Positions 3,318 to 5,976 of a stretch of DNA of 13,057 nucleotides are shown here, one piece after another (the stretch's first letter is position 1; each line of letters begins with the position of its first letter). Source of the DNA: a virus (taxonomy: Duplodnaviria > Heunggongvirae > Uroviricota > Caudoviricetes); IMG/VR virus record IMGVR_UViG_2778261569_000004, one strand, 5' to 3'. A program made the position numbers and the translations under genes. The notes under the pieces were generated by a model. That model saw only the letters and a program-made list of their open reading frames with translations. It made no database searches and was not told the origin of the DNA.

Positions 3318-3596
3318 TCAGGCCTCGAAGAATTCGCCGTTCTTCGGGGCTTTTTCTTTTGTCAGGATTCTGGCTACTTTCTTAGCCAGTTCCGCCAACT
3401 CCTCGTCTTCAACACCCCATTCAAGAACAGCCAGAAGCATTCCCATTTTGGGGATGAAGCTATCTTTCCATCGCGAAATTTGCGATTCATTAATCCCTAA
3501 CGCGTCGGCAACCTTTCGCTGACCACGTACAGCAATTCGATTCAGGATGTTGCTTGTAATTGCATTCGCTTTCTTGCGAGTACTTGTAAGTTGCAT
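3318..3596 (-). CDS. cII: CII transcriptional activator (lysogeny establishment)
   Basis: Recognised similarity to lambda CII, including the near-identical block SQISRWK...[13 protein letters not shown]. The translation-initiation region TAAGGAAATACTTACATATG matches the classic lambda cII ribosome-binding site, so the start is ATG 3596, not the upstream start in the ORF track. Confidence 0.85.
3323..3360 (+). terminator. Rho-independent terminator on the strand antisense to cII (oop-like terminator)
   Basis: Stem CCTCGAAGAA/TTCTTCGGGG (3323-3332 / 3340-3349, one G-U pair), 7-nt loop, then CTTTTTCTTTT (3350-3360). It lies on the plus strand inside the 3' end of minus-strand cII, the geometry of the lambda oop RNA terminator. 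Confidence 0.55.
3550..3563 (+). promoter_or_regulatory. CII-binding site TTGC-N6-TTGC (PRE-like establishment promoter -35 region)
   Basis: TTGCTTGTAATTGC on the plus strand inside the cII N-terminal codons, oriented to drive transcription antisense through cro towards cI, as lambda PRE does. The -10 element is not confidently identified. Confidence 0.5.
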
Positions 3597-3655
3597 ATGT
3601 AAGTATTTCCTTAACAAATAAGAAGTTATGCGCATCAAATTATGCGCGTTGTATT

Positions 3656-3698
3656 CCCGCATTTCGGCGGGAATGATGACCATGACTGTTAAAGAGCG
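3656..3698 (-). promoter_or_regulatory. nutR site (boxA plus boxB hairpin)
   Basis: On the minus strand just after the cro stop: boxA CGCTCTTTAACA (plus 3687-3698, reverse complement), then boxB hairpin CCCGC-CGAAAT-GCGGG (plus 3656-3671). The boxB sequence is identical to the one at nutL. Confidence 0.6.
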
Positions 3699-3704
3699 GT
3701 GTTA

Positions 3705-3899
3705 CTATTTGTTTTTCTTGTTGCTTGGGAAAGGACGAACTTCCTCTCCAATCACACTGCCATCAGGCTTTACCGTAACCATGATGTTACGGCCTGCCAG
3801 AATGGCCTTGCTGATAGCGCACTGGATTACACCAAAGTCACTGGCTGCTTTAGCCTGTCCATGGATTTTGGCGTAATCGGCAAGTGTCATTCGAATCAT
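3705..3899 (-). CDS. cro: Cro repressor
   Basis: Recognised similarity to lambda Cro (TLADYA..GQ.K.A.D.GV.Q.AI.KAI.AGR.I.....DGSV..EEV.PFPSNKK). Start placed at ATG 3899 with a GGAGAG Shine-Dalgarno 5 nt upstream. Divergent from cI across the operator region. Confidence 0.85.
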
Positions 3900-3929
3900 A
3901 TGCACTCTCCGTTATTAACCATGAACAAA

Positions 3930-4005: not shown

Positions 4006-4722
4006 ATGGAAAATAAAAAATCACTGACGACAGAACAGCTCGAAGACGCTAAGCGGCTTAAGGCTTTGTATGAGTCAAAAAAGAAAGAATTGGGAATAAC
4101 CCAATACTCAATCGCTGATGAACTGGGTATCACCCAAGGAGCGGTAGGGCATTATCTTAATGGCAGAAACGCGCTAAACGTTGAGGTCGCATCTGGTTTT
4201 GCACGTTTGTTGCAAGTCTCAATTGCTGATTTTAGCCAGTCAATTGCTGCCAAGGTTGCAGAACAGGCAGAAAGCCTTAAGAGCGATGCCAACGTAAGGT
4301 ATGCAGGGGAATACAGAGCAGGAAAGAGGTATCCGGTGTTAAGCAGTATCCAGGCTGGCTCGTGGTGTGAAGCATGCGAACCATACACCATTAAAGACAT
4401 AGATGTTTGGCTTGAGTCTGACGCGCATATTCAAGGTAATGCGTTCTGGCTTAAAGTGGAAGGTGATTCAATGACGGCACCGGTTGGGTTAAGCATTCCA
4501 GAGGGAACATTCGTTCTTTTCGATACCGGAAGGGAGGCGATCAACGGCAGCTTGGTCATAGCAAAACTTTCTGACTCTAACGAAGCAACATTCAAGAAGC
4601 TGATAATCGACGGCGGAAATAAATACCTCAAGGGACTTAATCCTGCATGGCCTCTCGTGCCAATCAATGGAAACTGCAAGATTATAGGCGTTGCAATTGA
4701 GACAAAACTAAGGCTGGTTTGA
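4006..4722 (+). CDS. cI: CI repressor (HTH DNA-binding domain plus LexA/S24-type autocleavage domain)
   Basis: Recognised similarity to lambda CI: N-terminal LTxEQLEDAKRLKALYE.KK.ELG..Q.S.AD..G and C-terminal FWL.VEGDSMTAP ... ATFKKLI (Ser/Lys dyad). Divergent from cro. Confidence 0.9.
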   Translation: MENKKSLTTEQLEDAKRLKALYESKKKELGITQYSIADELGITQGAVGHYLNGRNALNVEVASGFARLLQVSIADFSQSIAAKVAEQAESLKSDANVRYAGEYRAGKRYPVLSSIQAGSWCEACEPYTIKDIDVWLESDAHIQGNAFWLKVEGDSMTAPVGLSIPEGTFVLFDTGREAINGSLVIAKLSDSNEATFKKLIIDGGNKYLKGLNPAWPLVPINGNCKIIGVAIETKLRLV

Positions 4723-4739: not shown

Positions 4740-5108
4740 ATGGTTGGAACCGCTATAGCAAGCTTTTTTGGGATGTTGGCAATCTCGACAATTTACGGCT
4801 TAGCGCATGCTTTTATTGCGAAATCTCTATCAGAAAAAATAAGCCAGGCTTGGGCGCATAGATCAGCTCGTTTCATGATTCTGGTGATCATAGCAATACA
4901 AGGGATATCTGCATTTATCCTCTATGGATCAAGCTTATACCTATTGTATCAAGGCGCGACATTTACGCCTTACACCAGTGATTACGGAACTCTATACGAT
5001 GGTAGTGAAGACATCACTGTGGCTTGGATCGTCTTTGGTTTATCTATGGCCGTGTCTGTTGTAGCAGACATCATTAAGGTAATTCTCGTCTTAACCTTCG
5101 CTGACTAA
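4740..5108 (+). CDS. Small integral membrane protein in the rex/sie position, co-transcribed with cI (candidate superinfection-exclusion or defence protein)
   Basis: ORF track frame 4719..5108; start placed at ATG 4740 with an AAGGGG Shine-Dalgarno, 18 nt after the cI stop. Three hydrophobic helices predicted by eye (about residues 1-25, 45-70 and 95-120). It occupies the lambda rexAB slot between cI and OL. No homologue recognised. Confidence 0.6.
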   Translation: MVGTAIASFFGMLAISTIYGLAHAFIAKSLSEKISQAWAHRSARFMILVIIAIQGISAFILYGSSLYLLYQGATFTPYTSDYGTLYDGSEDITVAWIVFGLSMAVSVVADIIKVILVLTFAD

Positions 5109-5193
5109 CCTATAATCCCGGCAGCAATAGCTATCGGGATCCACTTCACATATCCCGCATAAAAAGCACTGAACAAGCAGACACCGAAAAAAT

Positions 5194-5281
5194 AAATATC
5201 CTTTGTATTCATTTGCTTATCATTATTTCACCAAAAATAAATACCTTGGGTATTTACACAATAAAATACCTACAGTATTCT
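5194..5281 (+). promoter_or_regulatory. OL operator region and PL promoter
   Basis: Three 17-bp operators of the same family as OR: AAATATCCTTTGTATTC (5194-5210), AAATACCTTGGGTATTT (5239-5255) and AAATACCTACAGTATTC (5264-5280). PL candidate: -35 TTTACA (5253-5258), 17-bp spacer, -10 TATTCT (5276-5281), overlapping the operators as in lambda. Confidence 0.55.
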
Positions 5282-5326
5282 TTAGCCATCAGCAGGGCGC
5301 TGGAAGCCAAACGGAACAGATTGGCA

Positions 5327-5367
5327 GGCTCTTTAACATTGATGGGATTGTCCCGCCGAAATGCGGG
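5327..5367 (+). promoter_or_regulatory. nutL site (boxA plus boxB hairpin)
   Basis: boxA GGCTCTTTAACA (5327-5338) followed by boxB CCCGC-CGAAAT-GCGGG (5352-5367), identical to the boxB at nutR; lies in the leader between PL and N. Confidence 0.6.
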
Positions 5368-5475
5368 AACCAAAGAGTAGTTGGCTTTGGGGTGACGTGA
5401 AGTGCAGCTGCACGACGGCAACCGGAAGATAAGCACCCGGCGCGTCACCGCCAAAGTCAATCATCGGAGGTCAAC

Positions 5476-5748
5476 ATGACAGTAGTCATTACATATCTGG
5501 CTGACGATAACGCCAGAAATCGCCGCAGAGCACGCAGACAGGCTCAACGTGAACAGGCAATGCAAGAGCAGCGACTGGCACGAAAAATTGCGCTAAAGCT
5601 CTCTGGTTGCGTCAGAGCAGATAAAGCAGCATCACTCGGAAGCCTTTGCTGCAAGGAAGAAGATGAACGCAGTGGAAGTATTTGCCTGCCAAACGTAGCC
5701 ATTTACGCGGCAGGATACCGGAAATCAAAACAACTGACAGCGAGGTAA
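5476..5748 (+). CDS. N: Antitermination protein N (P22 gene 24-like)
   Basis: N-terminal arginine-rich motif NARNRRRARRQAQREQ (boxB RNA-binding ARM); C-terminus ...AIYAAGYRKSKQLTAR resembles my recollection of P22 gp24; GGAGG Shine-Dalgarno; first gene downstream of PL and nutL. Confidence 0.8.
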   Translation: MTVVITYLADDNARNRRRARRQAQREQAMQEQRLARKIALKLSGCVRADKAASLGSLCCKEEDERSGSICLPNVAIYAAGYRKSKQLTAR

Positions 5749-5751
5749 GTG

Positions 5752-5976
5752 ATGAATCAGACATACATTCCATCATGCTTGAGAAATCTGCCAAAGCAGA
5801 AAGCAAAGCCCCGCAAGCAAGCCATAAAGGACGCTAAGGCAGAGGTTATTGATCAAGCAATACAATTGCTCAGGGAGGAGTTAAGAAGTGGCAAGCTCGA
5901 AGGAATGATGATGCCCTATCAGCGCGGATATCTATCGGCGATTAGTAAGTTGGAAGTATTGAAGAGTGAATTATGA
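5752..5976 (+). CDS. Hypothetical early protein (74 aa)
   Basis: ATG 5752 with a GAGG Shine-Dalgarno, starting 4 nt after the N stop. Basic N-terminus, predicted helical. In the position of ral or kil-type genes but not recognisably similar. Confidence 0.45.
   Translation: MNQTYIPSCLRNLPKQKAKPRKQAIKDAKAEVIDQAIQLLREELRSGKLEGMMMPYQRGYLSAISKLEVLKSEL

Follow-up and report, generated by a model that had tools for sequence, protein, structure and literature searches.

The stretch of DNA analysed here (the window, 13,057 nt) covers the immunity and early-left region of a lambdoid phage of the HK620 type. Over positions 5150-5760 it is 100% identical to Escherichia phages vB_EcoP_phi296 and phi367 and 97% identical to HK620, the annotation of which was transferred to the window and then checked against its sequence to obtain the coordinates in Table 1. 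The order known from lambda, with pL followed by nutL and N, is kept. We infer from the sequence ATCAGCAGG, as in the lambda pL RNA, that the pL transcript starts at about position 5288; counted from there, the N leader is 188 nt long. On the minus strand, nutR (3655-3697) carries a boxA and a boxB identical to those of nutL, where zero matches are expected by chance.

The longest mechanical ORF of the cII-like gene (3318-3683) overlaps the boxB of nutR, and its real start is, therefore, probably located further downstream. In PV189400, a 65-aa hypothetical protein is annotated on the plus strand at what corresponds to window positions 5203-5400; this is almost certainly no gene, as it would cover OL, pL, nutL and half of the hairpin described below.

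Table 1. Features of the immunity and early-left region and of the N-leader hairpin, in window coordinates
Feature	Position	Strand	Sequence or pairing	Basis or remark
cro	3705-3905	minus		HK620 annotation transfer; own family match
cI	4006-4722			HK620 annotation transfer; own family match
OL3 to OL1 and pL	5217-5288			HK620 annotation transfer
pL promoter	5253-5281	plus	-35 TTTACA, -10 TATTCT	consensus scan; HK620 annotation; lambda leader alignment
nutL	5328-5368	plus	boxA GCTCTTTAACA 5328-5338; boxB hairpin TCCCGCCGAAATGCGGGA 5351-5368	HK620 annotation
anti-P0 upstream arm	5370-5375	plus	CCAAAG; pairs with CUUUGG 5385-5390, 9-nt loop	directly 3′ of boxB
P0 5′ arm (stem base)	5381-5390	plus	UUGGCUUUGG; pairs with 5451-5460	folds and lambda alignment
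helix P1 5′ arm	5391-5399	plus	GGUGACGUG, contains GGTGACG; pairs with 5441-5449	covariation in 5-6 of 9 pairs
J1/2, unpaired	5400-5406	plus	AAGUGCA (family consensus AAUUGCA)	22-sequence alignment
P2 hairpin	5407-5419	plus	GCUG 5407-5410, loop CACGA, CGGC 5416-5419	covariation-backed
J2/3, unpaired	5420-5421	plus	AA	A5420 invariant
P3 hairpin	5422-5440	plus	CCGG 5422-5425, 11-nt loop AAGAUAAGCAC 5426-5436, CCGG 5437-5440	
helix P1 3′ arm	5441-5449	plus	CGCGUCACC, contains CGTCACC	covariation
bulge between helix P1 and P0	5450	plus	G	position of lambda's bulged A195
P0 3′ arm	5451-5460	plus	CCAAAGUCAA	folds and lambda alignment
Shine-Dalgarno sequence of N	5466-5470	plus	GGAGG	read from sequence; 5 nt past stem foot
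N antiterminator gene, 90 aa	5476-5748	plus		Pfam N_peptide E = 5e-15; N in HK620 and phi296

The N-leader hairpin and its counterpart in lambda

A structured element does lie, as the initial annotation proposed, between nutL and the N ribosome-binding site, and the repeats in which it had been recognised are all present: the inverted repeat GGTGACG/CGTCACC (5391-5397 and 5443-5449), the 12-bp palindrome GTGCAGCTGCAC (5402-5413) and the CCGG pair (5422-5425 and 5437-5440), which forms hairpin P3. Each by itself, these repeats are at chance level, the window holding two perfect 12-nt palindromes against 3.1 expected and 28 perfect 7-bp inverted repeats with arms 20-60 nt apart against 34 expected. 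What goes beyond chance, unlike the separate repeats, is the larger stem. The 7-bp repeat sits at the heart of a helix of 19 bp (5381-5399 paired with 5441-5460), interrupted by a single bulged G; this helix carries two small hairpins in a stem-loop of 80 nt in all (5381-5460). Pair probabilities in the helix are 0.9-1.0 (0.42 for the outermost pair), the four base pairs of P3 stack on it, and the 71-nt core folds at -29.5 kcal/mol with a z-score of -2.75, so that RNA folding does predict a stable, long double-stranded stem. The Shine-Dalgarno sequence of N is unpaired in the centroid fold; the sequence after the stem, TCATCGGAGG, includes no T-run. In related phages, the fold is maintained through compensatory changes.

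The base of the stem has a competitor directly upstream, the anti-P0 hairpin, which shares the 5′ arm of P0, the two structures thus being mutually exclusive. In folds of successive prefixes of the leader, anti-P0 is part of the minimum-energy fold when the RNA ends before 5456, after which the 3′ arm of P0 displaces it. An equivalent hairpin was folded in 14 of the 14 N leaders examined, using single-sequence folds because the MAFFT alignment is out of register in this section, and its arms co-vary: CCAAAC/GUUUGG in P22 and 2E9, CCAGAAC/GUUUUGG in 21 and CAAAGC/GCUUUG in lambda. These observations suggest either an ordered co-transcriptional folding pathway or a switch.

The structure had been regarded as a possible analogue of the RNase III site in the lambda N leader. 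On its sequence, bulge and spacing, the stem base is more than an analogue and is homologous to that of the lambda hairpin; the 12-bp palindrome, however, is not the conserved inner pairing (see the next section). In the lambda leader, GGCUUUGGGGUGUGUG occupies +81 to +96 and CACACACCACCAAAGC +187 to +202, with the N AUG at +223. The base reads GGCUUUGG-GGUG / CACC-N-CCAAAG in lambda and, identically, CUUUGG-GGUG / CACC-N-CCAAAG in the window, with the bulge at the same place (A195 and G5450, respectively), and GGCUUUGGGGUG...CACC(A/G)CCAAAG is invariant in the alignment of lambda, the window and a Citrobacter prophage (L140). Both phages have the order pL, nutL, hairpin, N ribosome-binding site and a matching competing hairpin upstream; the stem begins 11-12 nt past boxB and ends 2-5 nt before the Shine-Dalgarno sequence (12 and 5 nt in the window). 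The interiors differ: that of lambda, where the hairpin spans 118 nt from UUUGG to CAAAG, is unrelated in sequence, whereas the window has a compact 61-nt module with invariant unpaired bases, which also occurs outside N leaders. Cleavage and regulation have been demonstrated for the lambda hairpin only.

The stem base is kept and the interior varies in all N leaders collected, namely those of phages 21, HK629, PA28, Lambda_2E9, P22, SPN9CC, epsilon34 and Gally, as well as several uncultured phages. The Citrobacter prophage L140 combines the lambda boxB (GCCCUGAAGAAGGGC), a lambda-type N (MDAQARRRERR...) and the lambda stem base and downstream sequence with the module interior of the window. 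Variable interiors on a constant base, together with this prophage, make the hairpin a fixed socket for exchangeable interiors. With 19 bp and a bulge, the stem in the window amounts to about two helical turns, enough for RNase III, and closing helices measure 19-26 bp in all 11 module-bearing N leaders.

Some leaders carry insertions or a different interior. In HK140 (L011, about 538-745), about 200 nt flanked by CCAAAGT repeats are inserted between the hairpin and the Shine-Dalgarno sequence of N, including a 41-aa ORF and a second nut-like site (GATGCTCTTTCTG plus the hairpin GCCCCTC-AATTC-GAGGGGC), which implies that close spacing to the ribosome site is not obligatory. In the Stx2c phage Stx2_EH1904 (L013, about 450-790), boxB and the hairpin are separated by an insertion of about 330 nt, in which an Rfam scan found no family. 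The 3′ part of this insertion (...CCGGTAAAGCAGCGCGA...GGCAGAGACTCAAGGGCATGAGCGCG..CACTGCGAGAGTGTG) recurs ahead of the module in L142 (Kluyvera) and L153 (Salmonella). Gally (L012, 467-624; the same in L013) has the stem base of the window, but a 158-nt interior with a related junction, GAAUGAGCAG, and a last hairpin CCGG-AAUUCAGCA-CCGG; this interior has a counterpart in the ban leader of phage P1, and no Rfam family was found in a scan of the Gally region. In L087 (4711-5651 in locus coordinates, module on the plus strand), one module-bearing leader is followed by three different tandem N-like ORFs, which are HK620-like, lambda-like (MDAQARRREKR...) and P22/21-like (MATIIYGKS...KGRRRLRRLE), respectively.

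The 61-nt module in and outside N leaders

The module extends from 5390 to 5450 and consists of helix P1, J1/2, P2 and P3. We aligned 22 distinct cores with MAFFT, without fitting them to a structure, and scored the alignment on the three-helix structure: 92.6% of cells pair, as against 78.5 +/- 1.2% in shuffles (0 of 500 reach the observed value), and both sides change in nine of the 16 pairs. When partners were slid, pairing dropped to 28-47%. Over 41 distinct sequences, 92.4% of cells are paired and 10 pairs show double changes; RNAalifold independently recovers the same three helices. In related leaders, GUGACG/CGUCAC of helix P1 is replaced by GAUGCGAUG/CAUCGCAUC, GUGAUG/CAUCAC or GUGCAG/CUGCAC, and CCGG/CCGG of P3 by CCAG/CUGG or UCGAG/CUCGA, with an exchange of A-U to G-C at the third pair of P3. 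G-U pairs are common among the 41 sequences (at one pair, U-G occurs in 18 of them), which identifies the plus strand as the folded RNA strand. In the window, the covariance model (R1) detects a single copy, at 5390-5450 (66 bits, E = 1.5e-18); it scores copies outside its seed, in phage P1 and Salmonella phage Sasha, at 75-77 bits.

The palindrome at 5402-5413 fared otherwise. Across the 22 homologues, it is paired in 57.5% of cells, which is the shuffle mean (432 of 500 shuffles reach this value), and its internal hairpin, GUGC/GCAC, is ruled out comparatively for want of covariation support. By homology, the conserved inner hairpin is P2 (5407-5410 with 5416-5419), which the palindrome overlaps and with which it competes in the window sequence only. 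There, the palindrome form is 1.2 kcal/mol more stable than the P2 form, and both interior folds may consequently form.

Unpaired bases account for 13 of the 22 positions that are invariant among the 22 homologues. They lie in AAgUgCA (5400-5406; invariant at 5400, 5401, 5403, 5405 and 5406), at A5420 and in the P3 loop AAGAUAAGCA (5426-5435), where seven positions are invariant (family loop AAGAUAAGCAY). Such conservation would not be expected if the interior were a neutral cap for an RNase III stem. The 8-mers complementary to the P3 loop or J1/2 had no consistent position in 34 loci. One window sequence, TGCTTATC at 5214-5221 within the OL3/tIMM region, matches the complement of GATAAGCA in the P3 loop (5428-5435); as an antisense target it was rejected, being unconserved in other phages and consistent with chance.

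A pattern scan of viral contigs gave many chance matches, from which true copies were sorted by regular expression and then with the covariance model; the module core was thus found outside N leaders, too, and every time on the sense strand. When one genome was scanned for each bacterial species, further copies occurred essentially only in Enterobacteriaceae. Two strong copies are exceptions, one in a MAG labelled Segatella copri (L151; 66.2 bits, the same as in the window, and a G+C content of 0.66) and one in Vagococcus sp. (L149), the contigs probably being mis-binned or contaminating sequence. Phage P1 carries the module (NC_005856, about 69583-69642) in the leader of the C1-controlled ban operon, where it follows tRNA-Thr at a distance of about 80 nt and lies on the sense strand, opposite the doubtful plp ORF. 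Among 5426 complete E. coli genomes, 598 have P1-like plasmids with the module, and 467 have the HK620-type hairpin, on the chromosome and never annotated as RNA. In Sashavirus, the module occupies a 480-nt gap in the structural gene region, ahead of an annotated terminator. In three further loci (L018, L023 and L037), a cI-like repressor gene of the same strand precedes it by a few hundred nt, which again places it in an early-left leader, and the relatives found with the L018 leader as the query include ST64B, SfV, SfII and phiNP. In ENT1, L142, L143, L153, L148 and L149, it is mounted on stems of 16-28 bp of differing sequence, upstream of non-N-looking genes. The closing helix varies with the context, measuring 19-26 bp in N leaders and about 9 bp in the copies of phage P1, Sasha and the ST64B type. 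An intrinsic terminator follows some copies. Copies outside N leaders have an upstream hairpin similar in design to anti-P0, with CACAAC...GUUGUG 5′ of helix P1.

With the covariance model, the leaders of lambda, P22 and Gally yielded no module. They keep the hairpin, so any role of the hairpin in N control is independent of the module, and the module, for its part, is independent of N. The long stem agrees with the candidate RNase III-type structure of the initial annotation, which had missed the interior, a sequence-conserved module shared with non-N contexts.

Two apparent associations of the module were rejected. Linkage to tRNA genes is limited to P1-like and a few other loci (5 of 23), and a boxA candidate upstream of non-N copies, GTGCTCTTTCC, is the 3′ arm of a long hairpin with the 5′ arm CACAACAGGTAAGAGCAT, the arms of which co-vary.

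The ban leader of phage P1 (L136, 1980-3125; NC_005856, about 69057-70202) is an untranslated tandem series of related structured units. Besides the 61-nt module, it includes three long hairpins with the arms CACAACAGGTAAGRGC / GCYCTTWCCGTTGYG and a larger unit resembling the interior of the Gally/IME10 N leaders, while tRNA-Asn and tRNA-Thr lie between units.

Proposed function of the hairpin and its module

In lambda, a nutL complex located beside the N ribosome site represses N translation. The lambda order of NUTL, RNase III-sensitive hairpin and N ribosome-binding site and the relief of N autorepression by cleavage were reportedly described by Wilson et al. in 2002 (EMBO J), in a line of work on this hairpin that is said to include Steege et al. 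1987, Kameyama et al. 1991 and Wilson et al. 1997, 2002. The cuts in lambda we take to lie near +88/89 and +197/198, inside the conserved base. By homology, we favour, with a probability of roughly 60%, that RNase III cuts the stem in the window and, as in lambda, breaks the link between nutL-bound N and the N ribosome site. The folded stem brings the N-Nus complex on nutL close to the N ribosome-binding site; host RNase III would then cut the conserved base, at sites predicted at 5390/5391 and 5452/5453 by transfer of the presumed lambda coordinates. Such a cut would separate nutL from the RNA that codes for N, lift autorepression and raise N translation, and cleavage would tie the level of N to that of RNase III, as in lambda. 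Cutting at both sites would also set free a fragment of about 62 nt, almost exactly the 5390-5450 module, which probably has a sequence-specific job of its own. PMC5725501 describes repression of N translation by NutL-bound N and Nus factors and a high degree of structure in the intervening leader; in PMC5371410, Steege 1987 is the source given for RNase III sites in the N leader of lambda.

A conserved module shared with non-N contexts is more than an RNase III site by itself would call for. RNase III is indifferent to loop sequence, and cleavage, therefore, leaves the invariant unpaired bases and the copies on 9-bp stems (phage P1, Sashavirus) unexplained. There is, at somewhat less than even odds in our estimation, another way to see the element, in which the module is the main unit, be it a small RNA in its own right or a site bound by a host factor, and any effect on N is secondary; the N leader would be its early, heavily transcribed carrier and the long stem would serve excision, which is compatible with cleavage by RNase III and not exclusive of it. 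The distribution of the copies argues for this, located as they are in the ban leader of phage P1 by tRNA genes, in P1-like plasmids, in an intergenic region of Sashavirus, in leaders after cI-like repressors and upstream of non-N-looking genes. The scores of the phage P1 and Sasha copies, from outside the seed, point the same way, as do the prevalence of unpaired bases among the invariant positions, the terminators that follow some copies as they do small RNA genes, and the coincidence of the predicted RNase III fragment with the module. It is weakened by the search for a target or partner, which found none (the complementary 8-mers in the 34 loci), and by the hairpins that lambda, P22 and Gally-type leaders keep without the module.

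It seems unlikely that the hairpin acts uncut, as a spacer that compacts the leader or as a direct limit on the access of the 30S subunit, since in lambda cleavage strongly affects N translation. The unpaired state of the Shine-Dalgarno sequence in the centroid fold also speaks against it, and the exact conservation of base and bulge across heteroimmune phages, along with the invariant loops, would be left unexplained; what it does account for is the geometry, shared with lambda, of a boxB 12 nt before and a Shine-Dalgarno sequence 5 nt after the folded stem, and compaction by a structured leader has been raised as a possibility (PMC5725501). We consider it quite improbable that the element is a cis-acting RNA which, like put of HK022, modifies RNA polymerase or blocks Rho and so protects long untranslated early transcripts, even if the module is always found in the untranslated 5′ regions of early operons, in some phages with no N-like gene seen beside it, and in phage P1 in a long untranslated stretch rich in tRNA genes. 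The put RNA consists of two stem-loops without a closing stem, an architecture that differs from that of the module; the immunity and early region of HK022, searched with model R1 with filters off, yielded nothing, so the module is not put; and the window already has a complete N/nut system, with nutL and nutR, but no copy of the module after nutR. A chance inverted repeat, an intrinsic terminator or part of a small coding gene would suit the separate repeats at chance level and the ORFs annotated across such leaders (the one in PV189400 and, in LR595860, one on the opposite strand of its own leader), but covariation and the absent T-run exclude all three with near certainty: compensatory changes, G-U pairs and length differences of 1-2 nt among homologues fit an RNA helix and not a reading frame, and a plus-strand scan of 5100-5800 found no terminator-like site.

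For the invariant bases, a released small RNA or a host-factor binding site is our leading guess, and it is offered as a guess. Tentatively, then, the module may be a new family of phage structured RNAs that acts via its invariant single-stranded bases on a conserved host component; RNase III would excise it in N leaders, and other nucleases in the tRNA-rich ban leader of phage P1, and what is released might be a small regulatory RNA or a decoy. If so, the "RNase III hairpins" of lambdoid N leaders would be exchangeable cassettes, each with a different RNA; both the 61-nt module and the larger Gally-type interior have counterparts in phage P1. The upper part of the hairpin cannot vary freely, being a compact, covarying RNA with invariant loops, and it is common to lambdoid, P1-like, Sasha-like and other temperate phages (with relatives including ST64B and SfV) and to phage-plasmids of Enterobacteriaceae. 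Should it be set free as a small RNA, it would belong to the earliest phage products after infection or induction, which would make it a concrete candidate for a host-directed function.

Comparison with known RNA families and systems

The module is absent from Rfam and from the searchable literature. With Rfam 15, the whole window gave nothing at E <= 1 and positions 5340-5480 gave only spurious microRNA-hairpin matches at E <= 10, while no family matched the module copies of phage P1, Sasha, L018 and L037; text searches, whether for the motif sequence or for small RNAs from nutL leaders, returned nothing relevant. ARAGORN found the neighbouring tRNA genes at P1, L024, L068 and L145, and not the module, which the Rfam tRNA model does not match either.

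STnc100 (Rfam RF02076) and PasD resemble the module in a closing stem that ends in ...GGUG and continues with AAU..., and in a final CCGG...CCGG hairpin directly adjoining the 3′ arm of that stem. Both are prophage-encoded small RNAs and, unlike the window element, lie near Q and the late region, not in N leaders (bioRxiv 10.64898/2026.05.13.724894). A 141-nt query with the window element gave no match to STnc100 even at E = 10; the third unit of the phage P1 ban leader, 440 nt downstream of the module, matches it below threshold (33.4 bits, with a gathering score of 47).

The c4 RNA of phages P1 and P7 and the CI RNA of P4 are phage RNAs of about 75 nt excised from a leader transcript, with a closing stem and internal hairpins, in which the single-stranded segments do the work. 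The window module is likewise borne by a leader and has a closing stem with internal hairpins; it differs from them in that no complementary target was found in the 34 loci. The Rfam C4 model matched neither the window nor the phage P1 copy. The c4 gene of phage P1 is presumably located in the immI region, the module copy being in the ban operon instead.

The leaders of rRNA operons share with the N leader a Nus loading site (boxA) ahead of the 5′ arm of a long RNase III stem; in lambda, boxC (GGUGUGUG) is this arm. Nus factors have been linked with RNase III in rRNA folding (PMC4807359). In rRNA operons, the stem encloses the 16S rRNA, whereas that of the window encloses a 42-nt two-hairpin cap and precedes a protein-coding gene. 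The lambda N leader is a textbook case of a host nuclease that sets the level of a phage master regulator, and the base of its hairpin is now extended to a phage of the HK620 type.
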